This document shows, piece by piece, positions 504 to 21,940 of a stretch of 64,000 nucleotides of DNA (its first letter is position 1; the number at the start of each line of letters is the position of its first letter). The position numbers were made by a program, and so were the translations under genes. The notes under the pieces are model-generated. The model did no database searches. It saw nothing but the letters and a program-made list of their open reading frames with translations, and was not told where the DNA came from. The DNA lies in assembly GCA_016187335.1 (NCBI GenBank), contig JACPJW010000001.1, positions 224,001 through 288,000 on the forward strand, in the 5' to 3' direction. The DNA comes from Candidatus Aenigmatarchaeota archaeon. Lineage in GTDB: Archaea; Aenigmatarchaeota; Aenigmatarchaeia; GW2011-AR5.

Positions 504-3500
504 CTATTTACTAAAATTGAAAATACTTTCTCCTTCGCCATAATAATTATCAAATACGTGTTGAAAAGCTATTTCACATTTATTTTGATAATCTTTTTGG
601 TTATATGAAGATTCTGGAAGTCCTTTATCAAGCTCTATCTCAATCTCTCTTTTGACTTTGGCACGTGTTTGTTGTTTTTTTCTCCAGTCGATTGCAGCCA
701 GTCCGTCATGTTTTAACTTATATAAAAGTTCTTTAGCTACATTCTTTACTTGATTCTTGTCTTTTTCTGTGAGCTTTGGCTTTTTGAGTTTGTCAAATAG
801 CGCAAGTTCTTCCTGTGTGAGACCTTCGACTACGGCTCTTCTGTCTTCTTCTTCTAGGTTGTTGCTGAATTTGACGAGTTCTTCAAAGAATCTTTCTTGG
901 TTGAGTGAGCCTGAATTGTATTCGTCTATGAGTTGTTGGAATCTTTCTTGATAGTCGATTCTCATGCTGTTGAGACGTATCATTTCTTTGAGTTTAAATG
1001 TTAGGATGTTTTTGAGTCTTTCAATATCTGCGTTATTCTTTTTCTTTTCAAATTGTTTTTTCAAGGCTTCAAAGTCTATTTTGCTCAAGTCGATGGTTTT
1101 TGTCTTGGCTGATTCTTTGATGACATAACCTTTGGATGCGATTGATTTGTCAAGAACTAGTTGGATGTCGTGCATTACCGCTGTGATGTTTACTTCTGGG
1201 TCGAGTGAGCATATTTCTTTAATCAAGTCTTGATATAGTGCAATGTCTGTGCTAAATTCTGATGCGTCTTTATGTGGAAGAATTGCGCTGAATGTTTTAA
1301 TGGCGATGTCTGCTTTTTGCAAGAAGTTCTTCTTTATGTTATCATTTATGACGAGAACTGATAGTGCTTCATCAAGGAGTGCGTTCTTTGCAAGACCTTT
1401 GGCTTCTATGATTTTGTCGTGTTTGACTCCTTGGTCTATCAAGAAATTGTTGAGTTCCTTGATGTAGTCTTTCAAAGCTGCTACGAGCTTGTCTTTTGAT
1501 TGGATTGGAAGGTCTATTTGGCCGCCTACTGTTGGTGCAGCATAGATTGCGAGTGCTTTCTTCAAGTTCCTAAATACGTTGATGTAATCGACGATGAATC
1601 CTGCTTGTTTCTCTTTGAAGACTCGGTTTGCTCGTGCGATTGCTTGCATGAGCGTGTGGTTCTTCATTGGTTTGTCAAGGTAGATTGTTGATAGTGATAG
1701 CACGTCAAATCCTGTCATCCACATATTGCAGACAAAGACTATTTTCAACTCACTGTCTGCATCTTTGAAGATGGTTGCAAGGTCTTCATTAACCATTCGT
1801 TTTCGGTGTTTAGAGATTTCAAGGCCTTTTTCTTTGAATTTCTTAACTTCGTTCTGCTCTTGGCTGATGACAACGGCCATGTCAACCTTCTCGAGAGCAG
1901 CAATTTTCTCTCTGAGTGGTTTGACATCTTCGTATTTTGCCTTTTCTGCTTTCTTTTTGAGCTTGCCAACGTATTTTTTCCAATAATATTGAACTTTGTC
2001 ATACATCTTTACTGTAGTGGACTTGTCAATTGACACTATCATGGCCTTTCCTTCGTAACCTCTGTTGATGAAATGGTTGACAATGTCTTCTGCGATTGCA
2101 TTGAGACGGTTTTCTCTTGTGATGATATGATATTCTCTGGCAAATTCCTTTTCAAGTTTCTCTTCTTGCTGTTCATCCAGCTCTGCATTTTCGATGGTGT
2201 TATAGATGTCGTCATTAAGTTCTGGATTGATGAGATGCATTTCTGGAACTCTATTTTCATAGTATAGCGGGACTGTTGCTTTGTCTTCAACACTGGCTCT
2301 GAAATTGTAGATACTGACGTAATCGCCAAAAACTTCTTTTGTTCTTTCTTCTTTACCATAAGGGTCAAGTGGCGTTCCAGTGAATCCCAAGAATGCGGCA
2401 TTTGGTAATGCATTTCGCATATTTAGAGCAAGAATGTCGTATTGTGTTCTGTGAGCTTCATCTGTAATGATAACAATGTCGTCTCTATCCGAGAGCTTCG
2501 GATAGGTCTCTCCTTTTTCAGTTCCGAACTTGTGAATGAGCGTGAAAACAAGTCTGTGGTCTTCTTTCAAAAGCCTCTTCAGATTCTCTCCACTCTCCGC
2601 CTGTACTTTTTCTTCTGTGACAACCCCTGAATTTTGGAAGTTTCTGTAAATCTGTGTATCAAGCTCTTGACGGTCTGTAACAATGACAAAAGTGAAGTTG
2701 CCTTCAAATTTTCTCAAGACTTTTTGAGTGAAGAATATCATGGAATAGCTCTTTCCAGAGCCTTGCGTATGCCAGAAGACACCAAGCCTTCCCTTGTTCT
2801 TCTTCCTGTTTTTGAATGCTTCAATAGCATTGTTGACACCTAAGAATTGGTGGTTCTTAGCAATTATCTTGACTTGTTTGCTTTCGATTGTTGAGAAGAG
2901 AATGAAGTTCTCCAAAAGGTCAATGAGCCTGTTCTTCTCGCAAGTTCCATTGATGATTCTATCCAAAGAAACTATACCTATTTCCTTCTCTGTATCAACT
3001 TTCTTCCATTCAGAGAAGTGCTCGTAGCCACTAGTGATGCTTCCTATCTTTGCCTCTCTGCCGTTGCTGATGATGATGAAAGCATTGTACCAGAAGATCT
3101 GCGGGATAGTATCCTTGTAATCAGTGATATTATCATCAAATGCCCTCTTGACATCCGCACCACGGGCTTTGAGCTCTATCACAACAAGAGGTAGGCCATT
3201 CACGAATAAGATAAGGTCAGGCCTTCTCGTATAGACTTCGCCGGTGACCCAGAATTGTGAGGCAAGGAAGAAATCGTTCTTCTCTGGATTGTTGAAATCA
3301 ATAACTTTAACTGTTCTGTATTCATACCCGCCCTTCTTGTTCTTTGTCTTGATTTTCACACCATCTTTCAAAAGCTTGTGCACTTCATGATTCGCTTTCA
3401 CCAAAGACAGCCTGCTTCTGTCCTGTAACAATTGAGCAAGAACATCCTTCTTCGCATCATCAGACAAGCCATCATTCAATTTTTCAATAGCCTCTGACAA

Positions 3501-3653
3501 TTTCTTGACAAGCACAACATCAGACTTTGTATCCCTCCCCAAGGTCTGCGGGAACTTTTCCTCATAGCAATTTAAATGCTCAATACCCAAATCCTTCACA
3601 AAAACGTCAATAGCGGACTGCTCAACCAAAGCGTCCTCTGAGTACTCGGTCAT
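504..3653 (-). CDS. hsdR: Type I restriction enzyme R subunit
   Basis: PDLILFVNGLPLVVIELK nuclease motif, HTQGSGKS Walker A, DEAHR, FTGTP, QAIARANR. Confidence 0.97.
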   Translation of the reverse strand: MTEYSEDALVEQSAIDVFVKDLGIEHLNCYEEKFPQTLGRDTKSDVVLVKKLSEAIEKLNDGLSDDAKKDVLAQLLQDRSRLSLVKANHEVHKLLKDGVKIKTKNKKGGYEYRTVKVIDFNNPEKNDFFLASQFWVTGEVYTRRPDLILFVNGLPLVVIELKARGADVKRAFDDNITDYKDTIPQIFWYNAFIIISNGREAKIGSITSGYEHFSEWKKVDTEKEIGIVSLDRIINGTCEKNRLIDLLENFILFSTIESKQVKIIAKNHQFLGVNNAIEAFKNRKKNKGRLGVFWHTQGSGKSYSMIFFTQKVLRKFEGNFTFVIVTDRQELDTQIYRNFQNSGVVTEEKVQAESGENLKRLLKEDHRLVFTLIHKFGTEKGETYPKLSDRDDIVIITDEAHRTQYDILALNMRNALPNAAFLGFTGTPLDPYGKEERTKEVFGDYVSIYNFRASVEDKATVPLYYENRVPEMHLINPELNDDIYNTIENAELDEQQEEKLEKEFAREYHIITRENRLNAIAEDIVNHFINRGYEGKAMIVSIDKSTTVKMYDKVQYYWKKYVGKLKKKAEKAKYEDVKPLREKIAALEKVDMAVVISQEQNEVKKFKEKGLEISKHRKRMVNEDLATIFKDADSELKIVFVCNMWMTGFDVLSLSTIYLDKPMKNHTLMQAIARANRVFKEKQAGFIVDYINVFRNLKKALAIYAAPTVGGQIDLPIQSKDKLVAALKDYIKELNNFLIDQGVKHDKIIEAKGLAKNALLDEALSVLVINDNIKKNFLQKADIAIKTFSAILPHKDASEFSTDIALYQDLIKEICSLDPEVNITAVMHDIQLVLDKSIASKGYVIKESAKTKTIDLSKIDFEALKKQFEKKKNNADIERLKNILTFKLKEMIRLNSMRIDYQERFQQLIDEYNSGSLNQERFFEELVKFSNNLEEEDRRAVVEGLTQEELALFDKLKKPKLTEKDKNQVKNVAKELLYKLKHDGLAAIDWRKKQQTRAKVKREIEIELDKGLPESSYNQKDYQNKCEIAFQHVFDNYYGEGESIFNFSK

Positions 3654-4942
3654 GCTCCCACCTCGGACACCTTGATATCAAGCTCAGAAACGTCCAAATC
3701 GCCGGAAATTAATTTAGGAAGAAGAAGGTCACGAGTGGTAGCAAGATTTTGATTCTTCAGTTGAAGATTATCTATATCCTGATACATGCTTGAAACTATT
3801 TGAGAATACACCTCAATCGTTTTCTGATCTGGCATCACAAACTTATATTCACCAATTGGTTCAGATTTTAAATGCAATACATTGACGCCATTTGCAAATT
3901 CTTTTATGGTGATACCAAACGAAGAATAATTCAACAAACCAAAAAGCCAAGATTTGTCGAGCCCGTTCTTTGGGTTCATCTTGACTACATCCATAGAAAT
4001 TATAATTGTGTTCTCTTTCAATTTTGGGATTCTTGCAGCTCTTGCAACAATTTCTCTATTCTGGGTCATGTCTGTGACAGCAAGAACAATATCCCCGCAC
4101 TTCACAATATGCTTCTCCTTGAAGTCACCTTCAAATCTCTTCACGCCGTCATACCGGAATCCACCACCTCTCTCAAAACATTTCAAATTGACAAAAGCGA
4201 TTTTCCCATCATCAACAAGATTTTCACTTTTATAACTCAAACCCTTTTGAATATCAACAATATCGTAGACCCTCTTCACTTCCCATCCTTCTGGTATATC
4301 TCCGAGATCAGACTTAACCATCTTCACTTTCTCATGCCCAGGGAACTTGAACTTCACAAACCACTCATCATAAATGAGCTTTGCCATGGATTCAAGAAGT
4401 TGGATGCGACGAGAATTGTTTTCAAGTAACTCGTAGTAACTTGAAGCAATATTTGCAATCTTTTCTTGGGACGCCCTATTAGGAAATCTAATTTTAATCC
4501 TTCTAAAATCTTTAAGAACAACTCTGGGAATAGCAGCTCCGGTTGTAAACGTGTTTTTCATGTATGATTTTGTTGTATAACAATCTAAATAGAAATATAG
4601 ATATTTTGGACTTATTTTTTTAGGATCTGGTCTTATTATAGCAACTGAGGATAGAAGAACAAAGTGTGGCTTTGTTTTAAGAAAGCAAACTGTGTCTATT
4701 GCAGTAGCGCCATCCTTAGAGATTAATATATCTCCTTTTTCCGGTTGGCAACCTTGTCTAATTAACTTTTTGAAATCATCCTCAGATATTAACCTACAAG
4801 ATGGGATACTAACTCCAAAACTATTTAGGTCTTTTACTGAGGCCATTGGAAATCCTGTTTCAACACTTTTTGGACTAAAATGTGAACCGTCAGTAATTCG
4901 TTCACAAACTTCCTCTAAAGCAGACTCTTCAAACATTTTCAT
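3650..4942 (-). CDS. hsdS: Type I RM specificity subunit
   Basis: Two TRDs with conserved spacers (P..SQEKIA; [13 protein letters not shown]...G.IPEGW; [11 protein letters not shown]). Confidence 0.95.
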
Positions 4943-6440
4943 TCTCCAATAATTTATTCACATTCTCCGATATTTGTTCTTCAAGCTTGTGCGCTTCCTC
5001 ATTCAGCTCTTCGAGCTCTTCATTCATCTCTTCGAGTTTTTCTTTAAAATCATAGTCATCTTCTTTCTGTTCGGTCACGCCAACGTATCGTCCAGGATTC
5101 AAAGACCAGCCTTGCTCTTCGATCTCTGCAAAAGATGTAATTTTGCAAAGACCTTGAACATCTTTGTATTTCTTTGCTCCATTTTCTTTGCGATAGCTTC
5201 TTACGATGCCTGCAATTTGGTCTATTTGTTCTGGCGTGAATTCCCTGTGTGCCCTGTCAATCTGCTTGAAAATGTTTCTGGCGTCAATGAAAAGAATCTT
5301 TCCTTTCCTGTCTGTTTTTGCTTTGTTTTTGTCCAAGAACCATAATGTGCACGGCAAAGTCACCGTATAGAAGAAGTTTCCTGAAATCGCAATCATCACA
5401 TCTATTGCGTTCTGCTGAATTAGTTTCTTTCTGATTTCTGCTTCTGCACCGCGGGCATCGGCTGCGGAGTTGGCCATGACAAATCCTGCACGGCCTTTCT
5501 CGTTCAATGCAGAATAAAAAAGCTGAATCCAAAGATAGTTTGCATTGTCTGTCGATGGCAAGCCAAAAGGCCAACGCGCGTCTCCTTTGACTTTTTCATA
5601 ATCAACCCTATCTACGTTGAACGGCGGATTAGCCATGACAAAATCGAACTTACCGACGACTTTATGAACATCTTCATAGTAGGTATTGGCTTCTCTGATG
5701 TCTCCAGACAATCCATGTACTGCAAGGTTCATCTTGCACAATTTGACTGTTCCAGTTACCCGCTCTTGACCGTAGATGGATAATTCTTCTGAGGGATTCT
5801 TCTTTCTCTCTTCAACGAAGTGAGCACTCTGCACAAACATACCTCCTGAACCACATGCTGGGTCAAGAAGCTTTCCGTGGAATGGCTCAATAACTTCAAC
5901 AATTAGTTTGACCAGTGATGTTGGTGTGAAAAACTCACCACCTTTCTGGCCTTCTTTCATAGCAAATTTGCCAAGGAAATACTCGTAGATTTTACCGAAA
6001 GCATCGCCTTCTGTTACTGCAAGCTTATCAGGAGAAAAGGCTTTGAGGAGTGTGACGAGTAAATCATTTGTGAATTTGGAATATCCTCTCGGAAGTGTTC
6101 CTTTTAAATCAGGATTGGCTTCTTCGATGGAATCCATAGCACTGTCAATAGCTTGACCTATATCGCTGCCTTCTGATAAACCCAAGAGATATGAATATCT
6201 GGCTTTCTCTGGTAGATAGAGGACACCTTCTGCCTGATAATCGAGTTTACCAACCTGTCTCCGTGAACCTTGTCTTTTGCCTTCTAACTCTTTTTGTTTC
6301 TTGGTGAACTTGAAATCGGCATGACGGAGGAAAACTAGGCCAAGGACTGGGGTAGAATATTCGGCAGAACTCAATTTGGAGTTGGCTCTTAAATTATCTG
6401 CAATATCCCAAAGCCTTTTTTCTGTTTCGCCGTTAGTCAT
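4929..6440 (-). CDS. hsdM: Type I RM m6A methyltransferase
   Basis: [19 protein letters not shown] motifs. Confidence 0.97.
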
Positions 6441-6452
6441 TTTATCTCCTCG

Positions 6453-7148
6453 CTATATAACGCCTGTTTCTTTCATGCTTGTATAGCCTTTATTTCCAAT
6501 TATTATATGGTCCAAAACTTCTACACTCATCACAGTTCCTAGTTTTCTCATTTGATTTGTTAATTGTATGTCTTCATCGCTTGGGGTTGGGTCTCCAGAG
6601 GGGTGATTATGAATAAATATTACGGCGGCAGCCGATTCAACCAGAGCCTCTTTAAAAATCTCTCTTGGATAAACGGCATTAGAGCTAATGGTTCCTGTGA
6701 AGATACTCTTACATTTCAATAAGTTATGTCTAACATCTAAAAACAATACATAGAAATGCTCCTTTTTTGAGCTCCGGAGCCTTTTCATCAATAATTTCGC
6801 TGCATCAGAGGAGGTTTTGATTTTTTGTATTTTCTTGTTTGAATACGTATCAAACCTTTTCATGAGTTCGAAAACTGAAACTATTTGACACGCTTTAGCG
6901 TCTCCAATACCGTAAATATTTTTTAATTCAGTCACGCCTATTTCTGAGAGTTTACTTAAATCGTATTTAGCGAGAAGCTTATTGGATAATTCCAACACAT
7001 TGTCTTGTTTTGTACCAGTCCTAAGGAGTATTGCTAATAACTCACTGTTATTGAGCGATTGGGGCCCAAATCTAATAAGACGTTCCCTTGGTCTTTCAAA
7101 TTCAGGCATGTCTTTAATCCGTATTTTATAGAACATTTTTCCTTTCAT
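6453..7148 (-). CDS. radC: RadC/UPF0758 JAB-domain protein
   Basis: ERPRERL, ELLAILL, HNHPSGDPTPS.ED, LDHIII. Confidence 0.95.
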   Translation of the reverse strand: MKGKMFYKIRIKDMPEFERPRERLIRFGPQSLNNSELLAILLRTGTKQDNVLELSNKLLAKYDLSKLSEIGVTELKNIYGIGDAKACQIVSVFELMKRFDTYSNKKIQKIKTSSDAAKLLMKRLRSSKKEHFYVLFLDVRHNLLKCKSIFTGTISSNAVYPREIFKEALVESAAAVIFIHNHPSGDPTPSDEDIQLTNQMRKLGTVMSVEVLDHIIIGNKGYTSMKETGVI

Positions 7149-7795
7149 CTATGCACCTTTCTCTCCCTCACATACTCACAAAGCCCGCATTCTTTATTAG
7201 GCTTAGGCTCCTCCCCTTCCAAACACTTAACAGCATCCTTGAAAACTTTTAACGCTTTCTTCGGGTCGGTTTTCACCTTCACAGCATGCACCCTAAACGG
7301 TATTCCTTCGTGGAGTTCGCCAAAATCAGGATAGTAATAAACTATGTAGCCGACGCCGTTGGTCTGGTGCCCGTTCTCGTTCAGCAGCAGCGAGTAGCAG
7401 TCCATCTGAAGTTGGTAGGCATCGTTCATTTCGTTCCCGGACTTTAGGGCAAATCCTTTTGTCTTGTGATCCAGCGGCGCGTGGTCGCCGTCATCAAGAA
7501 CCAAGCATTCATCCAATCTGCCACTCAAAACATTGCCGCCTATTTCTGCTTTGAGTGATTTTGGTAAGAATTCTATCAGTTTGCCGGGAACCTTGCCTTC
7601 CAAGAACGGCGGTATTTTTCCGTGCGGCCTGTAGCGGTTCATGTATTCTTTTATCACGCGGTCAAGGCCGTTCATGATGGTTGCCATCGGTGTGCCGGGA
7701 GTGTCTATGACCTTGTTCATGGACAGCCAGAAGCAGAGCGGGCAGTTGAGGAAGAAGTTCAGGGAGGTGGGGGAGAGTTTGATCATTTTCATCAC
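7145..7795 (-). CDS. RecB/Cas4-like PD-(D/E)XK nuclease
   Basis: LSPTSL..F..CP, GRLD..LDHK, QM..Y, C-terminal CxxC; overlaps radC start by 4 nt. Confidence 0.8.
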   Translation of the reverse strand: MMKMIKLSPTSLNFFLNCPLCFWLSMNKVIDTPGTPMATIMNGLDRVIKEYMNRYRPHGKIPPFLEGKVPGKLIEFLPKSLKAEIGGNVLSGRLDECLVLDDGDHAPLDHKTKGFALKSGNEMNDAYQLQMDCYSLLLNENGHQTNGVGYIVYYYPDFGELHEGIPFRVHAVKVKTDPKKALKVFKDAVKCLEGEEPKPNKECGLCEYVRERKVHR

Positions 7796-7804
7796 TTAAC
7801 ATTT

Positions 7805-8257
7805 TTAACTTTCTTTCTTATCAAAAAAGTAATCCCATTTATCTCTATATTTATTTTTTAATTTCCTTAATCTGCTTAATTCTACAACTGTTCTATTCCC
7901 TTTTGGATTTCTGTAAATTATAGATTTTTCGCCAAGTTCTTTATGTTCATTTTCTAACTCGGTGGATGGAACTATATATACTTCTGGTAAACATTTTAGG
8001 TCATTTATTTTATTCAAGAATGAAATAAAAATCAGAAAATGATTTTTGTGTTTTCTATTCCAATTATCTATTGGGAAATTACTCGTACCTCTAAGACCTT
8101 TTACATCTGCTGTTAATGTTTCACCGTTTTTATCAATAACGATATCTATAGATTTTTTATTACCTAATGTAAGATATGCATTTACATTCATTCTATATAA
8201 TATGGAAAGGACATAGTATTCTGATGCTAAGTTTGTATTTTGTCCCGTATCTCCCAT
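7805..8257 (-). CDS. Putative PD-(D/E)XK-fold endonuclease
   Basis: SEYYV...IDI...DVK pattern. Confidence 0.6.
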   Translation of the reverse strand: MGDTGQNTNLASEYYVLSILYRMNVNAYLTLGNKKSIDIVIDKNGETLTADVKGLRGTSNFPIDNWNRKHKNHFLIFISFLNKINDLKCLPEVYIVPSTELENEHKELGEKSIIYRNPKGNRTVVELSRLRKLKNKYRDKWDYFFDKKES

Positions 8258-8285
8258 TAAATCACATCTTTCTTAGCTATTAAGC

Positions 8286-8990
8286 TCACCTAGCTCTATT
8301 AATTATGAATTTTTTTTCTTCTAACCGTAAGTTATATTTTTCCTTGTTATGCCTTTCTATTTCTTTGCCTTTATTGATGCAAAGACTATTGAGAAACGAG
8401 TTTATACTTCTTTTACTAGATTTTGGTTTTTTTCTTAGAAAATCTTTCAGTTTTTCAATATATTCGTCGTACACTTTTGCTTTCAACTCATCGCTCATGA
8501 GTTTATTATACCACATTGTAAGCAAAATTCTAGAAACTGCATTGGTTTCCTTCCCAGAGTAATGGTCTCGTTTTATAAAATCTTTTGCAAGTGATATCGA
8601 AAGTTCTTCTAGCAACTCTTTTAATTCCTTTTTCTCGATTCCGGAATTGTCAAATTCTCTATCAAACTTGTCTTTATGATTCCATATGTCTACAACAAAA
8701 ATTTTTTTTATTGTTTTAGGCATGTTTAACTCATCAGCAAAGGTACCGGAAAATTTTTTTCCAATTATATTCATATCTGAAATTAGTTTTCTAACGCCAT
8801 TCTGATGTATCCAATTTTTACAATTAATTATTAGAGTTTCTTTTTTATTAGAAGCTAAGACATCTATGTCTGACCAACCAAATTGTTTTTTACTTTCACG
8901 TTTAATCCTTAAAGGGAAATTACGCTGCGTTAGATATCCATTATTTCTACACCATGCTTCAGTAATATCTTCAACATAAGAAAATACCAT
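8286..8990 (-). CDS. Putative PD-(D/E)XK-fold endonuclease
   Basis: VE...NGY...DIDVLA...INCK pattern. Confidence 0.55.
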   Translation of the reverse strand: MVFSYVEDITEAWCRNNGYLTQRNFPLRIKRESKKQFGWSDIDVLASNKKETLIINCKNWIHQNGVRKLISDMNIIGKKFSGTFADELNMPKTIKKIFVVDIWNHKDKFDREFDNSGIEKKELKELLEELSISLAKDFIKRDHYSGKETNAVSRILLTMWYNKLMSDELKAKVYDEYIEKLKDFLRKKPKSSKRSINSFLNSLCINKGKEIERHNKEKYNLRLEEKKFIINRAR

Positions 8991-9093
8991 TTTTTCACCT
9001 CTACAACCTCTTCCTCAATCATTATTACAATTTCATAGTCTCACCACCTTTTACTGACCTCTCGAAAAATTGGAGTCTTTCGAGATGAAGACT

Positions 9094-9603
9094 CTATTTT
9101 ATCGGAAATAATTTAATTACTGAGCCGCTTGCACGTCGCTGACGCGCCGGATTATCTAATTTTGAAACAGCAACGGCATCTTTACCATTGCTTAAATATT
9201 TTAGATTTTTAAATGGAAATACGAATGCACGTAATGATCCATCTTTATTTCCAACAACTATTCCTATCCAAGCATCAGTTTTCCATGCTTTCATGGAATT
9301 TTTTATTTGTTTTGATCCTATAGGAATCGTGGGTACAAATTTTTTATATGTTTTTGAGATTCTTGCCTTCACTGAAATACCAATAATTTTATTTTTCTGA
9401 AAAATTTTTCCTCTAGAATCAATAGCAAATAAATCAAAACCGATGTTACGTGCTCTTACTACATTAACGCCTTTTTTAGATAACAAATAAGTTATAAAAC
9501 TTTCTCCAAAATCTCCAGAATGAATTGCTTCGCTACCTATATTTGGATTATTCTTCCAAGCTTTTTTACCAGCAATGGACATTTTGTTTTTCATACTCTG
9601 CAA
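9094..9603 (-). CDS. Putative Hjc-like PD-(D/E)XK endonuclease
   Basis: GDFGE...GFDL...ISVKAR pattern. Confidence 0.55.
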   Translation of the reverse strand: MQSMKNKMSIAGKKAWKNNPNIGSEAIHSGDFGESFITYLLSKKGVNVVRARNIGFDLFAIDSRGKIFQKNKIIGISVKARISKTYKKFVPTIPIGSKQIKNSMKAWKTDAWIGIVVGNKDGSLRAFVFPFKNLKYLSNGKDAVAVSKLDNPARQRRASGSVIKLFPIK

Positions 9604-9639
9604 CCGATTTCACAATCTTCGCTCAATCATATTACGATT

Positions 9640-10290
9640 CTATAACCTCGCCACCCTGCCCGCATCAGTAAGCTGGTAGCCCTTGCCTTCTGCGACTTCT
9701 ATGAGGCCCATGTCCTTCAGCGCCTTGATGCTGCGGTATGCCATGGCGCGCGTGATTCCTAATTTGTCTGCGAGCTCTGCAACGTTCTGGTTGTCCTCTA
9801 TTTCTTCTAAAATTCGGAGCTGGCTTTTTGTGACTTTGAAGGGCAGTATGGGCAATATAACAGGGTTTTTGCTCTCCCATGGAACATAAAATATCTTCTT
9901 TATGCGGTCCCAGCGCTTGTAAGCCGCGAGTAGGACGCCGAGGGCTTTCGGCTTCTTGCCTGAGGTGATGTTTATGTAAATCTCATCCTTGTTCGGGATG
10001 GCATCAATAAGCTCCACGACCTCTGTTGCAGATGATACGGCGTCCAGGTGGTCAACGGATTTTTCCTTGATCTCGATGACCTTGCCGAGCGTTCTCTTTA
10101 TCTCAGCCACGGACTTTTCCTGCAAATCATCCTCGGGCTTTCTGTCCTTGATAAGGTATATCCTGTCGGCAGACAGCTTGTTCGCAAGAAGAAAAATGGA
10201 GTCGGATGTGTGCACAGTACTGACCAGCACCCTTGCCATATCCTCGTCTTTTTCCTGAACGCTTATATCGTTTACAGTATAATTTTCCAT
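9640..10290 (-). CDS. CARF-domain + winged-HTH transcriptional regulator (Csa3-like)
   Basis: Rossmann-like N-terminus with INITSGKKPKALG; C-terminal HTH NVAELADKLGITRAMAYRSIKALKDMGLI. Confidence 0.75.
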   Translation of the reverse strand: MENYTVNDISVQEKDEDMARVLVSTVHTSDSIFLLANKLSADRIYLIKDRKPEDDLQEKSVAEIKRTLGKVIEIKEKSVDHLDAVSSATEVVELIDAIPNKDEIYINITSGKKPKALGVLLAAYKRWDRIKKIFYVPWESKNPVILPILPFKVTKSQLRILEEIEDNQNVAELADKLGITRAMAYRSIKALKDMGLIEVAEGKGYQLTDAGRVARL

Positions 10291-10893: not shown

Positions 10894-10984
10894 TGGACTG
10901 GTCGGGACTTTCACCAACTTTGCTTCCTCTTTTGATCAAACTTTGGAGCAGCAAAGTTTGCTTTGAACCCGAAGCCTCCTGGCT
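10894..10984 (-). pseudogene. Orphan 3' half of an Ala-type tRNA with an intron at 59/60
   Basis: AGCCAGG-AGGCT-TCGGG-TTCAAA[intron]T-CCCGA-CCAGTCC-A; acceptor strand identical to tRNA-Ala; no 5' half adjacent. Confidence 0.75.
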
Positions 10985-10996
10985 ATAATGTCGCAT

Positions 10997-12379
10997 CTAT
11001 TTCACAAAGCCCTGCTTGATATCGCCGATGTCAAAAAGCAGTACATTGTTTTCCCTGATTCTTTTGCTGAAACTCCTGGCAAAGACGGCATAGTAGTCTT
11101 TTCTGTCTTTTTTGAAAAGCTCAACCTGCTCTGATTTTTTCTTTAAGCCGCTTATTACAGCGTTAGGATCAGCATTGTCTTTCCATTTGCATTCGCAGAA
11201 CAGCATTTCTTTTGTTTTTTTGTTGAAGGCTACCATGTCCATTTCTTCCTGCCTGCTCCACCATCTGCCTATATTTGTGGCGCTGAAAGGGAGCCTGCCC
11301 TTTGCATTGGCTTCTATCAGAAACTCCCTGCATACGCCTTCGAATGCCTTTCCCACAAATGCCGTGAAATTACTCCTTACGCTTTCCGTTACAGGCCCGG
11401 AATTCTCTATTTCCAGATAAGACATGTTAGGGTACACAAAACGGAACCAGAAATTGAAGAAATTGTCATTTATGAAATAAAGGGTCTTCTTGCTTTTCGG
11501 CTTCATCTCTGTGACAGGATTTTCCTTCTTTATGAGCCCCATGCCTTTTTCAAGCACGTTCAGGAAGTAACTGAGCGAGGTCTGCTTTATGCTTATCATG
11601 TCGGCTATCTCATTTGTCTTTGTCCTTCCTTGTGCTATTAGCTTCATTATATTGAAGTATGTCGCAGGATTCGGAAGCTCTGTTCTTATGAGCATATCAG
11701 GCTCGTTGTAAAGCGCGCCTCTTTTTGAAAGTATGCTCGCCTCTATGCTTTTTATCACATCCACCTTCGCATCCGCTTCCAGGAGATATTTTGGCGTCCC
11801 TCCGAATACTGCATAGATTTCCACTAATTTTTCTGCCGGAACAGAAGGGAACCATTCGAACAAATGCCTGAATTTGAGCGGCTCCAGGTCTATCTGGCCT
11901 GTGCGCCTGCCGTAGAGCGGTGCCGAATACTCGAAAAGCTTGTGCATCATTCCTATCGAAGAGCCCATGACAGCAAGGAAAACTCCTGATTTCTTGTGGT
12001 GGCTGTCTATCTGCTTCTGAAGAATCGAGGGTACAGATTTGTTTATAGTCAGGAATCGCTGGAACTCATCAATCACGATAACAGTCCTTTCCTGCATTCC
12101 AAGCATGCGGTCGAAAATCTCGTCCCATGCCGGCTCTCCAATAAAACTCAGTCCGAATTTTTCGTTAAGGTTTCTTGCAAAAATCAGCCTGAGCTCCTTG
12201 TCATCTATGTCAGGCACAAAGAAGTAGAGCGCTTTCTTTCCTGATATGAACTTTTCGATAAGGGCTGTCTTGCCGACACGCCTCCTGCCTATTACTGATA
12301 TGAACCTGAAGCCATCGTTCTTGTGCTCTTTGGCAAGAAACCCCAGCTCGTCCGCCCTGTTTATAAACTTTATTGTCAT
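10997..12379 (-). CDS. Archaeal AAA ATPase with HTH and DUF234/PD-(D/E)XK C-terminus
   Basis: FINRADEL, GRRRVGKT, IDEFQ, GGTP.Y, EMD...ECKW; start moved to MTIKF. Confidence 0.88.
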   Translation of the reverse strand: MTIKFINRADELGFLAKEHKNDGFRFISVIGRRRVGKTALIEKFISGKKALYFFVPDIDDKELRLIFARNLNEKFGLSFIGEPAWDEIFDRMLGMQERTVIVIDEFQRFLTINKSVPSILQKQIDSHHKKSGVFLAVMGSSIGMMHKLFEYSAPLYGRRTGQIDLEPLKFRHLFEWFPSVPAEKLVEIYAVFGGTPKYLLEADAKVDVIKSIEASILSKRGALYNEPDMLIRTELPNPATYFNIMKLIAQGRTKTNEIADMISIKQTSLSYFLNVLEKGMGLIKKENPVTEMKPKSKKTLYFINDNFFNFWFRFVYPNMSYLEIENSGPVTESVRSNFTAFVGKAFEGVCREFLIEANAKGRLPFSATNIGRWWSRQEEMDMVAFNKKTKEMLFCECKWKDNADPNAVISGLKKKSEQVELFKKDRKDYYAVFARSFSKRIRENNVLLFDIGDIKQGFVK

Positions 12380-12431
12380 GACAATTATTGTGATGACAAT
12401 AATATTTAAAGCTATCGTACTCCCGGCGAGC

Positions 12432-12547
12432 ATGTGAAAAGAACTTTGTCTCCACCACATAAATGTGGTGGCTTCATTATTACCAAAGTTCTTTTACACG
12501 CCACATTCCACCTGTATTACCACCGTTTAAAAACGGTGGAATGTGAG
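12432..12547. repeat. Two nested long hairpins, with a core resembling IS200/IS605 subterminal palindromes
   Basis: Minus strand GAAGCCACCACATTTATGTGGTGGAG inside AAAAGAACTTTG...CAAAGTTCTTTT; CCACCGTTTTTAAACGGTGG inside CACATTCCACC...GGTGGAATGTG. Confidence 0.5.
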
Positions 12548-12555
12548 TGTTTCAA

Positions 12556-12856
12556 TGGACTGGCTGGGATTTTCAGAACTTTTCACCGTTTTCCTCGAAG
12601 AACATCAGTTCTTCGGGATCTCGGAGAACTATCGTTCTCCACAGATGATCAAACTTTTGTGAAAAGTTCGTTTGAACCCAGAGCCTCCTGCTATCTTGTT
12701 TGCCTCTTTTGATCGAACTTTGGAGTAGCAAAGTTCGTTGCAAAGCAGGCGATCTTCCTTCTCCGAACCCTTTTTGCTTCGCAAAAATCGTTCACGGAAA
12801 AACTTCTTTCCGTAGACGCTTTCTTTTTAAGAAAGGGTCTGTTGATCTACCAGCCC
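12556..12856 (-). tRNA. tRNA-Ala(UGC) with three introns (D-loop, 37/38, 59/60)
   Basis: Exons GGGCTGGTAGATCAAC / GGAAGATCGCCTGCTTTGCA / AGCAGGAGGCTCTGGGTTCAAA / TCCCAGCCAGTCCA; G3-U70; BHB TTCA/TGAA at the T-loop intron. Confidence 0.92.
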
Positions 12857-15189: not shown

Positions 15190-15794
15190 GGGCTGCATCT
15201 TGTATATCCTCCGCTACCGAAAAGGGTTTTAATCCTGTTTTTCAAGAAAGTTGCATGAAAAAGCAGGTTCTGAAGCGCATGCCTGAAGAAACGCAGAAAG
15301 TGCATGCCGCTGATTTTGAAAAGGAAAAGAAGAAACTGGAACAGAGCTTCAAAAAGAAAGAAATGCCCTTCCGCCTGTTCTGGGTGAAGTGAAAATATCT
15401 ACTATTTCTGTTAAAACCTGTAGATAGCTTCGGCTAAATCGTATCGATAAAAAAATCCAGCTTTCTTTGCGTTTTGGAAAAAATAGCGCGCAAAGGTACA
15501 GGTAGTTCCGGGTTACGTCCCGGAACTCACGGAGCCGCAGCTCCGATGAATTGGCATTCTATCTCATGGCCCTCTTTTGATGAAACTTTTTTGAAAAGTT
15601 TCAGAGGAAAGCACACTGACTGTCGCAGAACCCTTTCGGATTCTTTTGATAAAACTTTTCTTGAAAGAAAAGTTTTTAGGAGGTGATCCAGCCGCACGTT
15701 CCCGTACGGCTACCTTGTTACGACTTAGCCCTCCTTGCAGACAATTGATTCGACTTATTCAGCATAAGCCTCACCAAAAGTCCACTCGGATGGC

Positions 15795-15826
<32 letters not shown>

Positions 15827-15840
15827 CATTCAGCGAAAGA

Positions 15841-16030
15841 TTCCACGATTATGAGATCATCATAGTGCTGCTTCTACTCGACCAAAGACATCCGCCCATA
15901 CTTTTAATCACCAGACCGCTACGGATTTCTTTCCGTAGACGCTTTCTTTTTAAGAAAGGGTCTTCATAGTCAAGCACTTCTTCTGTCTTTGATTTTGTAG
16001 CGCCAAAAAATCATTTGGATCTCACATCCA
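15841..16030 (-). other. 16S intron, 190 nt, near E. coli position 1363
   Basis: BHB with central helix TCAT/GTGG; splicing restores GCGAAGGTCATCATCTTTCGC. Confidence 0.8.
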
Positions 16031-16389
16031 TGATGACCTTCGCTTACTAGGGATTCCGGCTTCACGTGGGCGAATTGCAGCCCACGATCTGAACTAGGCG
16101 CCGGTTTGAGAGATTGGCTTCACCTCACGGTGTTGCATCCCATTGTCCGACGCATTGTAGGCCGCGTGTAGCCCCGGAAATTTAGGCCATACTGACCTGC
16201 CGTAGACCGCTCCTTCCTCTGGCTTAGCGCCAGCGGTCCCGCTAAAGTGCATGCCCTGCGTACAGGACATTCGCAACTAGCGGCACGGGTCTCACTCGTT
16301 TCGTGACTTAACACGACACTTCACAGCACGAGCTGACGACGGCCATGCAGCACTTCTCAGTTTGTTAGGTAACCCCTTTAGAGTGACCC

Positions 16390-16962
16390 TCATTCTACTG
16401 TCTTCCCGGGTGAGGTCTCCAGAGAGGAATCCTCATATTTCCAAAGAATGCGTTTGCCTTCATTCTTTCTTGCCACACTACGCGCGGATTCAAGGTCGCG
16501 CAATGTTTCCCTTATTGTGCTTGGCATCAATCTTAATCCAAGGCACAATTCTCCTATGCTCCACCACTTATCATTTTTTCTGATCAACGCAACTATCTTC
16601 TCTTTCGTTGAAGCTTTGTTGCGCATGAAGCCGCCTTTCATCCCTTCTCTTTCCAAGAGAAGCTTCGCCCATTGATTCTTAATCGGTTCCGCAAATTCCC
16701 CTGCAATGGAATAAATCTCCCTGAAAGCATTCCTATGCAGCTTGAAGCCGATGTTTTCTCTTTTGACGAACTTTTTGCTTGCCCAGCCATGCGCTTTGCA
16801 GACCTCAAAAATAGTGTTAAGCTGATTTCTGTTTCTGCTTGACTGAACAAGCACAGGCGACTCTTCAGCTATAAAGCTGAATTCAAACTCGATTAGTGGA
16901 AGGAGTATAGAAGCTGTAAGTTTTTGCCTTTCTTTGCTCGCTCGTAAACACTTATCATCCAT
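16390..16962 (-). CDS. Intron-encoded divergent LAGLIDADG-like protein with C-terminal wHTH; no stop codon inside the intron
   Basis: ASILLPLIEFEFSF resembles the LAGLIDADG helix; WSIGELCLGLRLMPSTIRETLRDLE HTH; reading frame runs into the exon. Confidence 0.6.
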   Translation of the reverse strand: MDDKCLRASKERQKLTASILLPLIEFEFSFIAEESPVLVQSSRNRNQLNTIFEVCKAHGWASKKFVKRENIGFKLHRNAFREIYSIAGEFAEPIKNQWAKLLLEREGMKGGFMRNKASTKEKIVALIRKNDKWWSIGELCLGLRLMPSTIRETLRDLESARSVARKNEGKRILWKYEDSSLETSPGKTVE

Positions 16963-17015
16963 AGTACTGTATACTTTGGATGATTTATTGGTTTCCGTAC
17001 TCGAGTATTCCTCTT
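16417..17015 (-). mobile_element. 16S intron, 599 nt, at E. coli 977/978, ORF-containing
   Basis: BHB CCAG/CTGG, outer helix AGAGGAAT/ATTCCTCT; splicing restores CAACGCCAGGAACCTCACC. Confidence 0.9.
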
Positions 17016-17035
17016 TCCTGGCGTTGAATCCAATT

Positions 17036-17075
17036 TTCGGCCCAAGCCAATGATATACGTTTCACTGAACTCGGT
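17036..17075 (-). other. 16S intron, 40 nt, at 957/958
   Basis: BHB CGGT/GCCG; splicing restores GCGGTTTAATTGG. Confidence 0.85.
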
Positions 17076-17114
17076 AAACCGCAGCCTCCACCCCTGGTAG
17101 TGCTCCCCCGCCAA

Positions 17115-17726
17115 TTAGGGGAAAGTAATCCCATCATTTAGCAGCTTCAATCTGAGCTGCTTATCCTTGTGCCAACTTCCGATGTTTTTGCAGAAGTATA
17201 GAAGATTGTTCTTCCTTGTCAGCCTGAATTCCCAGACATTACCGCAAAAGGTAATGTTTGTTGGCTGGCAACTTTGATCAATCAAAACCTGTCTAATGAA
17301 TTCCAAAGATTCCCTGTTTTTCTGGCTGAACGAGATGTATTTCTGTTTCGCTGTATCTGGTTTCTTTGGAAGTCCTCCTTCTGCATCAAAGAATCCTTTC
17401 AAATAGTGAATTTGAATTTTCACTTTCTGTTCCTTTATGCATTTTGGAGTATCCCAGAATTCCTGCGGTGTTTCGAAATCGGATATATCGAGAATTTTTT
17501 CAACATAGCTTCTTCCGTTAATCCTCAGTATTTCCGTTCCGTTTGCATGTTTTGTTATGGTGCCGCGAGCTTCAAACTCTTTATGGAAAAGAGTTTGCAA
17601 AAGGCGTAACCATGATGTCTCTCTTTGTGCTATTTTAATTTCGTAGTTTTTTCCTTTCCTGACATCTATGGATGCGTCTCTCATAGCACCTAACAGATAC
17701 GCAAGTTCTGGGCTGACAGGCTTCAC
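17115..17726 (-). CDS. Double-motif LAGLIDADG homing endonuclease
   Basis: LAYLLGAMRDAS and YLKGFFDAEGG motifs; SQKNRESLEFI. Confidence 0.88.
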   Translation of the reverse strand: MKPVSPELAYLLGAMRDASIDVRKGKNYEIKIAQRETSWLRLLQTLFHKEFEARGTITKHANGTEILRINGRSYVEKILDISDFETPQEFWDTPKCIKEQKVKIQIHYLKGFFDAEGGLPKKPDTAKQKYISFSQKNRESLEFIRQVLIDQSCQPTNITFCGNVWEFRLTRKNNLLYFCKNIGSWHKDKQLRLKLLNDGITFP

Positions 17727-17778
17727 TCTATAACTTTGGCAGCAGGGATATTTAAGTGTGGTATCGGGGTTACTTTCT
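17115..17778 (-). mobile_element. 16S intron, 664 nt, at 919, with homing endonuclease gene
   Basis: BHB AGGG/CCCT, outer helix GAAAGTAA/TTACTTTC. Confidence 0.9.
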
Positions 17779-17908
17779 TTCCCTTAAGTTTCAGCCTTGC
17801 GGCCGTAATCCCCAGGCGGCCCGTTTAACGCCTTCGCTTCGGCACCACGGATCCACGAAGGATTCGTGACACCAAACGGGCAACGTTTACAGCTAGGACT
17901 ACCGGGGT

Positions 17909-17990
17909 CTTTAGGACCCTTTTGCGATTTTATTCGCGGTAGCGTGATTTCCGTAGACGCTTTTACGCGCTTGCATGCGTAAAAGGGTCT
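17909..17990 (-). other. 16S intron, 82 nt, at 793/794 (repeat motif A)
   Basis: BHB TTAG/CTAA; splicing restores GGATTAGATACCCC. Confidence 0.88.
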
Positions 17991-18002
17991 ATCTAATCCC
18001 GA

Positions 18003-18036
18003 ATGAACTCGACTAAGATTTTCGTCTTAGTTCGAT
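18003..18036 (-). other. 16S intron, 34 nt, at 781
   Basis: BHB GAGC/GTTC; leaves a 12-nt exon (17991-18002) before the next intron. Confidence 0.75.
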
Positions 18037-18090
18037 TCGCTCCCCTAGCTTTCGTCCCTCACCGTCGGACCCGTTCCAGCCAAGCGCCTT

Positions 18091-18134
18091 ACGTGGAAAC
18101 TTTTCCGTTTTGATTGAATTTTTTGAAAAGTTCA
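18091..18134 (-). other. 16S intron, 44 nt, at 727/728 (repeat motif B)
   Basis: BHB GTGG/CCAC; splicing restores GTGGCGAAGGCG. Confidence 0.88.
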
Positions 18135-18338
18135 CGCCACAGGTGGTCCCCTACGGATTAAAAGATTTTACCCTTACCCGTAGAGTACCCTTGGCCTCTC
18201 CCGGTCCCAAGCCCGATAGTATCTCCAGCAAGCCTTACAGTTTGCTGCAAGATTTCACCAAAGACACATCGAGCCGGCTACGGACGCTTCAGGCCCAATA
18301 AACGTGACTACCCCTCGTGGCGCGGTTATTACCGCGGC

Positions 18339-18389
18339 ATCCAGATCCTTTTCCGTCAACGCTTTTGCGTCTTCAGACGTAAAAGGGTT
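18339..18389 (-). other. 16S intron, 51 nt, at 523/524 (repeat motif A)
   Basis: BHB CCAG/CTGG; splicing restores GCCAGCCGCCGCGG. Confidence 0.88.
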
Positions 18390-18428
18390 GGCTGGCAACC
18401 GTCTTGCCCACCACTTATTCCTCCACCT

Positions 18429-18483
18429 ATGTAATCCTTTCTTCCGTTTCTTTCGCAAGCGTTTTCTTTTCGAAAGAAAAGGC
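18429..18483 (-). other. 16S intron, 55 nt, in the helix 17 loop
   Basis: Relaxed BHB GTAA/TTAC; splicing restores CCACTGTAAAAAGGTGG. Confidence 0.75.
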
Positions 18484-18550
18484 TTTTACAGTGGAGAAAA
18501 GACAGCGCTAAGCGCTGCCACTCAGGGTTCCCTTGTCAGGCTTTCACCCA

Positions 18551-18600
18551 GTTTGCGAACTTTTCAGTTCCGTTTTGATGGAACTTTTCTGAAAAGTTCC
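18551..18600 (-). other. 16S intron, 50 nt, at 374 (repeat motif B)
   Basis: BHB TTGC/GCAA; splicing restores TTTGCAATGGG. Confidence 0.88.
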
Positions 18601-18606
18601 TTGCAA

Positions 18607-18639
<33 letters not shown>

Positions 18640-19339
18640 CGTTCATGTCTCAGAACGCATCTCCGGGCTATCGCTCTCACGACCCGTACGGATTACAGCC
18701 TTGTTGAGCAATTATCTCAACAACAAGCTAATCCGCCGCAGTCCCATCGTTCAGTGCATTGCTGCTTTCAGCGAAGATGCCTTCCAGCAATTATCGCCTA
18801 TCGGGTATTATTCCCACTTTCGCAGGATTATCCCCGTCTGAACGGCAGGTTAACTACGTGTTACTGAGCAGTGCGACGAGGTCTTGCACCTCACGTCTCG
18901 CATGGCTTAGCCGAACCCTGATAAAGGTAGTCTCCGGCGGGATCAACCGGAATTGTGCGGGAAAACACAAACCCTTGTGGTTATGTGTCCCTACCATTTG
19001 ATAGAGTCTTGCCTACCCATACCTTTGTTCACTTGTAAGCATGCTTACCAGCTCATATTTATCATGCAGCGGAAGTGTTTCTTCACGAAAAAGGCTGTTG
19101 CCTTAAAATCCGAAACGACGCCTTGCTGTCATGAATAATCATTTCAGTTTTGACTCATCCGCTTTTTACAGCAGAATGTGCCGCGTAATTATTATCCAGT
19201 CAAAAGCGTTCGTAAGAACTGCTTCGCTTTAACGAGCAAGCCAGCTAGCTAGAAGTATAGTTGCCAAACTATGCCCGTCTCAATACTTTCAAGGCACGAT
19301 TCTTAGAACCGCACCACACCATCAATAAATAAAGAAGGG

Positions 19340-21873: not shown

Positions 21874-21940
21874 TATTTTTGATGTTTTTTGATGTTTTTT
21901 GATTAAACTTTTTTCGAAAAAGTTTAGGAGGTAGAAAAAA

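Follow-up and report, generated by a model that had tools for sequence, protein, structure and literature searches.

The window analysed here is a stretch of 64,000 nucleotides (contig C2, positions 224001-288000) from the 1.01-Mb genome of an Aenigmatarchaeota archaeon, which is assembled in two contigs (C1 and C2), has a G+C content of 47% and is about 91% complete. A gene for tRNA-Ala(UGC) with three introns occupies positions 12556..12856 of the window on the minus strand, and in-silico splicing placed its exons at 12856-12841, 12758-12739, 12692-12671 and 12569-12556. Once the three introns were removed, ARAGORN identified a 72-nt tRNA-Ala(tgc) cloverleaf carrying the G3:U70 identity pair; intron removal restores a canonical tRNA, as is expected of bulge-helix-bulge tRNA introns. 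No tRNA was reported by either ARAGORN or Rfam in the unspliced window because the introns hide the genes.

Intron 1 (D-loop, 82 nt, 12840..12759, minus strand) begins with 37 nt identical to a stretch within a 16S rRNA intron. This stretch (window 15927-15963) lies in an insertion near the 3′ end of the 16S rRNA gene (window 15678-18953, minus strand), which spans 3.3 kb compared to a model of 1,478 positions and hence contains long insertions. Intron 2 sits at position 37/38 (46 nt, 12738..12693, minus strand) and consists of a single nucleotide, a 35-nt module that we term B-type (12737-12703) and a 10-nt 3′ adaptor. Intron 3, at position 59/60 (12670..12570, minus strand), is 101 nt long, so the first-pass annotation was correct in stating that the intact gene carries a different and longer intron at this site. 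It belongs to a separate whole-intron family, with members in the T loops of tRNA-Phe(GAA) at C2:411.9k (94% identity over 114 nt) and of a tRNA at C2:716.7k that we read as tRNA-Asp (89% identity). Across this family, the strand of the central helix that is contributed by the intron covaries with the T loop (UGAA/UUCA, UGGA/UCCA and CGAA/UUCG). The 141-nt spacer on the 3′ side of the gene (window 12415-12555, minus strand) forms strong nested hairpins (-53 kcal/mol), one of which has B-like arms (GAACUUUG/CAAAGUUC) around a different loop.

Approximately 1.6 kb downstream of tRNA-Ala(UGC), on the same strand, lies an orphan 3′ fragment of a tRNA-Ala gene (10984..10894, minus strand) that runs from about nt 38 to the discriminator at nt 73. 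Its exons (10984..10962 and 10907..10894) are separated by a 54-nt intron at position 59/60 (10961..10908, minus strand), which contains a further B-type module (10960..10926, minus strand). The last 30 exon nucleotides of the fragment are identical to those of a complete tRNA-Ala(GGC) gene (C1:28537-28682), which itself has no T-loop intron. Between the tRNA gene and the fragment, Pfam searches identified an ATPase_2 and DUF234 gene cassette with its own TATA-like promoter (10997..12416, minus strand). A defence-type island follows downstream of the fragment (window 504-10290, minus strand) and encodes hsdR/S/M type I restriction-modification, RadC, a PD-(D/E)XK nuclease and a CARF-like/HTH regulator.

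The first-pass annotation had described the 37/38 intron of tRNA-Ala and the 59/60 intron of the fragment as near-identical, and had proposed that one was recently copied or translocated between the two tRNA positions. The similarity is real and lies on the minus strand, where a 35-nt core (12737..12703 compared to 10960..10926) is identical at 32 of 35 positions, and two of the three differences make up a single compensatory base pair of a hairpin. This match is far above chance, since 81 sites in the genome match a 16-nt motif from the tail side of the core when up to 2 mismatches are allowed, and shuffled genomes contain none. Near-identity, however, holds for the core module and overstates the relationship of the introns, of which only 35 of 46 and 54 nt are common; outside the core the two are unrelated, with 10 nt on the 3′ side of one and 18 nt on the 3′ side of the other.

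BLAST of both loci against their own genome returned dozens of matches, and the core belongs to a dispersed repeat. In its generic form, the repeat is a 9-bp hairpin (NNAACUUUU, a loop and AAAAGUUNN) followed by AUCAAAA, and a structural pattern search recovered 115 copies in the genome, compared to 0.3 expected from shuffles. Thirteen of these fall in the window (e.g., at 21897, 30198, 32544 and 36746). The two basal pairs of the hairpin are paired in 106-107 of 109 copies, compared to 42-61 in shuffles, and involve several Watson-Crick types, a covariation indicating that the hairpin itself is maintained. The B-type unit is about 50 nt long and comprises a 9-bp hairpin (NNAACUUUG, loop CUNCUC, CAAAGUUNN), a single-stranded AUCAAAAGAGR tail and usually nUnGUGGYGA, with the G-C inner pair and the CUNCUC loop as hallmarks. 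Most B copies carry the full extension AUCAAAAGAGR-nUn-GUGGYGA, which is kept by the fragment intron, the D-loop intron of tRNA-Arg(CCU) and a tRNA-Leu trailer but not by the Ala 37/38 intron. The fragment intron also retains the GGUGAAA motif found at the 3′ end of the unit.

Fifteen B-type copies were identified in this genome, and the search pattern matches 12 here and 5 in the sister genome. Three are located in tRNA introns (Ala 37/38, Ala-fragment 59/60 and the D loop of tRNA-Arg(CCU) at C2:455.4k), two follow the acceptor stems of other tRNAs at a distance of 3 nt, and the others, which are most of the 15, lie between protein genes. All five copies of the sister genome are intergenic, three of them 0-2 nt after a stop codon. 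When 44 genomes of the family were searched, the B core was found in this genus (g1) and in none of the 42 other genomes. Among 185,579 species genomes, real matches were again confined to the genus (sister genome, Aenigmatarchaeota groundwater MAG), and the remaining singletons were about as numerous as expected by chance; the one inspected, a single match in Woesearchaeota, had no tail and was taken as a chance match. Judged by sequence and distribution, the B type is a genus-specific subtype of a hairpin and AUCAAAA module that is found across the phylum.

Given this family of copies, the flagged pair could be compared with other pairs of the same repeat. Against its own proposal, the first-pass annotation had named the case that the similarity was no higher than between any two motif B copies, and this is largely what was found. 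Among 16 full copies (35 nt), the flagged pair differs at 3 positions, the median is 5, and 28 of the 120 pairs show 3 or fewer differences. The fragment copy has nearer relatives elsewhere, with 1 difference to the tRNA-Arg(CCU) D-loop intron and 2 each to the tRNA-Leu trailer and to two intergenic copies of the sister genome, and the Ala 37/38 copy is closest to the Arg copy (2 differences). A direct transfer of the intron between tRNA-Ala(UGC) 37/38 and fragment 59/60 in one recent event would be favoured by the position of the loci, which are 1.75 kb apart on the same strand and could engage in gene conversion, and by the 32/35 identity of cores that both end in AAAAGAGG. Such a transfer is nonetheless improbable in our view, as the common part is restricted to the 35-nt core, each copy has a nearer relative elsewhere, the CUACUC loop variant of the Ala copy is common only to the tRNA-Arg D-loop copy, and the 37/38 intron position is old (see below). 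What stands of the original proposal is that the core was recently copied, as a genus-only subtype present at three tRNA positions; no specific event between these two sites emerged. Similar sequences do occur in different tRNAs and at different positions, as expected of transposed introns, both for the B core (Arg D-loop, Ala 37/38 and Ala-fragment 59/60) and for intron 3 with tRNA-Phe and a third tRNA. In terms of whole-intron similarity, however, the flagged pair differs in its 3′ parts, unlike intron 3, in which the whole intron is common to several tRNAs in the pattern known from Thermoproteales. The moving entity is a repeat unit that is normally intergenic, not a whole intron.

Relatives were used to place the 37/38 intron in time. 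Nine tRNA-Ala(UGC) genes were recovered, eight of which have an intron at 37/38, with contents ranging from an A-type hairpin followed by AUCAAAA (the layout closest to that of this genome) to unrelated sequences. An intron at 59/60 was present in only one of the nine genes, and this gene came from another family. The sister genome, which is the only other genome of the genus and is 56% complete, yielded no tRNA-Ala genes. By this comparison, the intron position 37/38 is of long standing and the core has been exchanged over time, which means that the flagged intron was remodelled and not newly inserted; the B core probably replaced an older intron core in tRNA-Ala(UGC). In one relative (L024, G024:C14), 16 nt duplicated from the 5′ exon of tRNA-Ala(UGC), together with the start of a D-loop intron, stand ahead of the complete gene and form a 5′ orphan fragment that mirrors the 3′ orphan fragment observed here.

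Intergenic modules start within 4 nt of a same-strand upstream stop codon in 20 of 84 cases, compared to 2.5 expected (maximum of 9 in 200 random placements), with open reading frames called heuristically. Behind tRNA 3′ ends, six of seven modules start exactly 3 nt past the acceptor stem and the seventh at 4 nt. An A-type hairpin and AUCAAAAG module starts 1 nt past the mature 16S 3′ end (…GGAUCACCUCCU; window 15575-15672, minus strand), with a second copy about 70 nt further on. In the intron copies inspected, in this and other genomes, the module begins 0-1 nt past the inferred 5′ splice site. These positions, together with the covariation that maintains the hairpin and the presence of the exact A-type sequence in 36 of 200 other genomes of the phylum, where most copies immediately follow the 5′ splice site of tRNA introns, are what would be expected if the hairpin and AUCAAAA served primarily as a functional RNA signal, showing a conserved factor where an upstream unit (exon, tRNA, 16S rRNA or open reading frame) ends, and had been spread by selection instead of selfish copying. 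We consider this account rather unlikely. Copy numbers are very uneven (73 exact A-type matches here compared to 1-15 in each of the other 36 genomes), the B subtype with its identical 6-nt loop is specific to the genus, and an orthologous gene junction in the sister genome has no unit, all of which favour amplification. Rfam contains no matching family at gathering or permissive thresholds, and we know of no factor that binds the module. A promoter function was rejected, as the B-type loops are not TATA-like and the next ATG lies 1 to 471 nt away. Readings as an integron attC site or a C/D-box sRNA were also set aside, the consensus not fitting on inspection, and a reading in which every module is a full mini-intron that uses AUCA to build the central helix was abandoned when no upstream UGAU was apparent by eye.

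Evidence for recent copying comes from a B unit at C2:892.6k, where a 53-nt segment (about 1497-1549 of the extracted locus, L056) exactly fills the interval from a stop codon to the following ATG. At the orthologous junction of the sister genome (L091, G001:C3), in a region that is 74% identical, the 53-nt unit is absent and the genes abut as TGA-ATG. Since the B subtype was not found outside the genus, the segment is best read as an insertion from this comparison. Both of its edges carry the 5-nt sequence TGAAT. Candidate mobilising enzymes were sought in the genome; PF01797 and PF07282 gave no match, so that neither a Y1 transposase nor TnpB was identified, and a reverse transcriptase was likewise not found. 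Mobilisation of the REP/RAYT, IS605 or retro-element kind was rejected on the absence of the cognate enzymes from the genome, so that copying, which would have taken place at the DNA level, is argued from the distribution of the sequences and one polymorphic site.

Whether the introns could be recognised by the splicing machinery was judged from their predicted folds. Intron 3 adopts the strict motif as its minimum-energy fold, with the T-stem, a UUCA/UGAA central helix, two 3-nt bulges and an 11-bp inner helix. For the fragment intron, a fold with the UUCA/UGAA helix, two 3-nt bulges and an inner helix of 9/10 bp is possible (-14.4 kcal/mol; not its minimum-energy fold), and this inner helix makes use of an extra copy of the hairpin arm located just before UGAA. 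In intron 2, the hairpin begins at the second intron nucleotide, and UUUG (nt 32-35) is able to form a helix with an intronic CAAG, which would leave the 3-nt bulges CA|A and AU|A. Its motif is relaxed, with a 15-nt linker between hairpin and central helix opposite the 5′ bulge (-15.2), and the thermodynamic model favours an alternative fold in which the tail of the module pairs with the 5′ strand of the anticodon stem. Two bulges flanking a 4-bp helix are found strictly in intron 3 and as possible folds in intron 2 and the fragment intron. The genome encodes both EndA and RtcB, the latter once. EndA (C2:410508-411113, L058) has 202 aa, is of the alpha type and comprises an N-terminal and a catalytic domain; a search for a second splicing-endonuclease paralogue gave none at E≤1. 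From these folds and genes, splicing of the introns is predicted.

The orphan fragment requires an explanation of its own. No decay is visible in it: the exons match the GGC gene without a difference, the T-stem is paired throughout, and the splice motif, which can form in the strict version, is intact. This state, together with a start at about nt 38, which is the commonest split point, and a genome completeness of about 91% that could leave a 5′ half unassembled, is what a working 3′ half of a split tRNA-Ala would look like, trans-joined to a separate 5′ half as in Nanoarchaeum or Caldivirga. Such a function is, on balance, improbable. Pattern and BLAST searches of both contigs returned only the two complete genes and neither a 5′ half nor a sequence complementary to the leader of the fragment, complete genes are present for all three Ala anticodons (CGC, GGC and UGC), the stop codon of the ATPase lies 12 nt upstream with no TATA-like box seen by eye, and on reading the sequence no central helix can form between the leader and the anticodon loop of the adjacent tRNA-Ala(UGC). 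The undecayed state also fits very recent truncation, gene conversion or retained function.

Three genomes from other genera contain, at unrelated loci, copies of the cassette gene and its promoter with a nucleotide identity of 75-88%. The copies in one of these genera reach 86-88%, which suggests that the transfer was recent. The cassette was probably acquired horizontally, because this cross-genus identity of 75-88% exceeds the 74% measured between orthologous regions within the genus. Its homology stops at the ATPase stop codon, 12 nt from the fragment. Considering that no 5′ half was found, that complete CGC, GGC and UGC genes exist and that the cassette homology ends so close by, the fragment is most likely a truncated tRNA-Ala gene, i.e., the dead 3′ remnant of a second tRNA-Ala gene that was recently cut short. 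An integrase-mediated island at a tRNA gene was rejected, as none of the 13 open reading frames near the locus has an integrase domain and the tRNA 3′ repeat is not the identical copy expected of an att duplication; its T-stem, anticodon stem and 59/60 intron all differ.

The assembly is of the metagenome type and the locus holds repeats, both of which could produce a chimera, but we regard an artefact of this kind as very improbable. The locus is embedded in a contig of 918 kb, neither the 141-nt spacer nor the flanks have a second copy in the genome, and the boundaries of the fragment coincide with tRNA landmarks. Scans of metagenomes for the fragment junction and for a parental gene with the T-loop intron of the fragment gave no match, with records of the genome itself possibly excluded.

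Taken together, the likely explanation is that both flagged introns hold copies of one dispersed B-type repeat, a joint reading in which we include splicing, replacement of the intron core and the fragment as a remnant. The B unit is normally intergenic, where it often follows directly on a stop codon and precedes the start of the next gene, and copies would have entered, or overwritten the core of, bulge-helix-bulge introns in the D loop of tRNA-Arg(CCU), at 37/38 of tRNA-Ala(UGC) and at 59/60 of the Ala fragment. In the pre-tRNA, the hairpin would begin one nucleotide past the 5′ splice site and form a helix beside the 5′ bulge, while the 3′ end of the intron would pair with loop bases (UUUG/CAAG in the anticodon loop and UUCA/UGAA in the T loop). 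The resulting 4-bp central helix and two 3-nt bulges would be cut by the splicing endonuclease, and the exons would be joined by RtcB. The second tRNA-Ala gene may have been truncated when the horizontally acquired ATPase cassette arrived, or afterwards.

A more far-reaching reading, which we put forward tentatively as one possibility, is that the intergenic B unit is a currently or recently mobile spacer and a donor of new tRNA intron sequence, with a conserved GGUGAAA 3′ end that is complementary to the conserved UUCA of the T loop. Owing to this complementarity, one insertion event at 59/60 would be enough to supply the central helix together with the two bulges, and the motif would be tightened by later changes such as the duplicated adjacent hairpin arm of the fragment.

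Several known systems resemble parts of this arrangement. Transposed bulge-helix-bulge introns have been described in tRNA genes of Thermoproteales (Fujishima et al. 2010, as presented in PMC4090602), and in that account the pattern is read as intron spread at the DNA level constrained by the splice motif. Compared to what PMC4090602 relates, the host here is a DPANN archaeon, a unit of 35-50 nt is common instead of whole introns, and most copies lie outside tRNA genes; sharing of a whole intron, as in Thermoproteales, is displayed by intron 3 of tRNA-Ala(UGC). In Caldiarchaeum subterraneum, a tRNA-Thr(GGU) fragment lies beside a mobile element (Sugahara et al. 2012, PMC3293823), and both cases involve an orphan fragment about 1.6-1.8 kb from an intact, intron-bearing tRNA gene with apparently horizontally mobile sequence in between. 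By analogy, our reading of the fragment would be in line with this precedent (PMC3293823). The Caldiarchaeum case consists of a 5′ fragment and a recombinase-encoding element (PMC3293823), whereas here a 3′ fragment accompanies an ATPase_2/DUF234 cassette without a recombinase, and the fragment matches the T arm of a different isoacceptor. A stand-alone 3′ half starting at about position 38 is also reminiscent of the split halves of Nanoarchaeum equitans and Caldivirga maquilingensis (PMC4090602), but here no 5′ half, complementary leader/trailer pair or evident promoter was found, and all three Ala anticodons have complete genes.

In its architecture, the B unit is comparable to bacterial REP and archaeal MITE-like repeats, which likewise combine a short hairpin with a conserved flanking tail, reach tens to more than 100 copies, are mostly intergenic and show tandem copies and lineage-specific bursts. 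It differs in that no RAYT/Y1 transposase or TnpB accompanies it and in that copies are oriented with the upstream gene and also form cores of tRNA introns for which splicing is predicted. ARMAN-2 has heavily interrupted tRNA genes and a three-unit epsilon2 endonuclease, and its two assayed introns are 13 and 25 nt long (Fujishima et al. 2011, PMC3239211). Both organisms are tiny DPANN-type archaea with many tRNA introns at non-canonical positions including 59/60, but here a single 202-aa EndA of the alpha type is combined with long, modular introns (PMC3239211 for ARMAN-2).

These results bear on the general question of how archaeal tRNA introns arrive. The present analysis defines the B subtype and shows that it is confined to one genus, ranks the flagged pair among all pairs of copies, compares an insertion with its empty site in the sister genome, and adds the extension that intron copies have in common with intergenic units, the link to stop codons and an account of the fragment. 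A young, genus-specific unit is present in several states within one genome, namely as a clean intergenic insertion, behind tRNA 3′ ends and as an intron core at three tRNA positions, which points to a pool of intergenic repeats as the source of intron sequence. The system allows gain, remodelling and gene fragmentation to be compared among close relatives and, if the B unit is indeed a mobile spacer, it would provide a concrete donor pool and route for the gain of archaeal tRNA introns.
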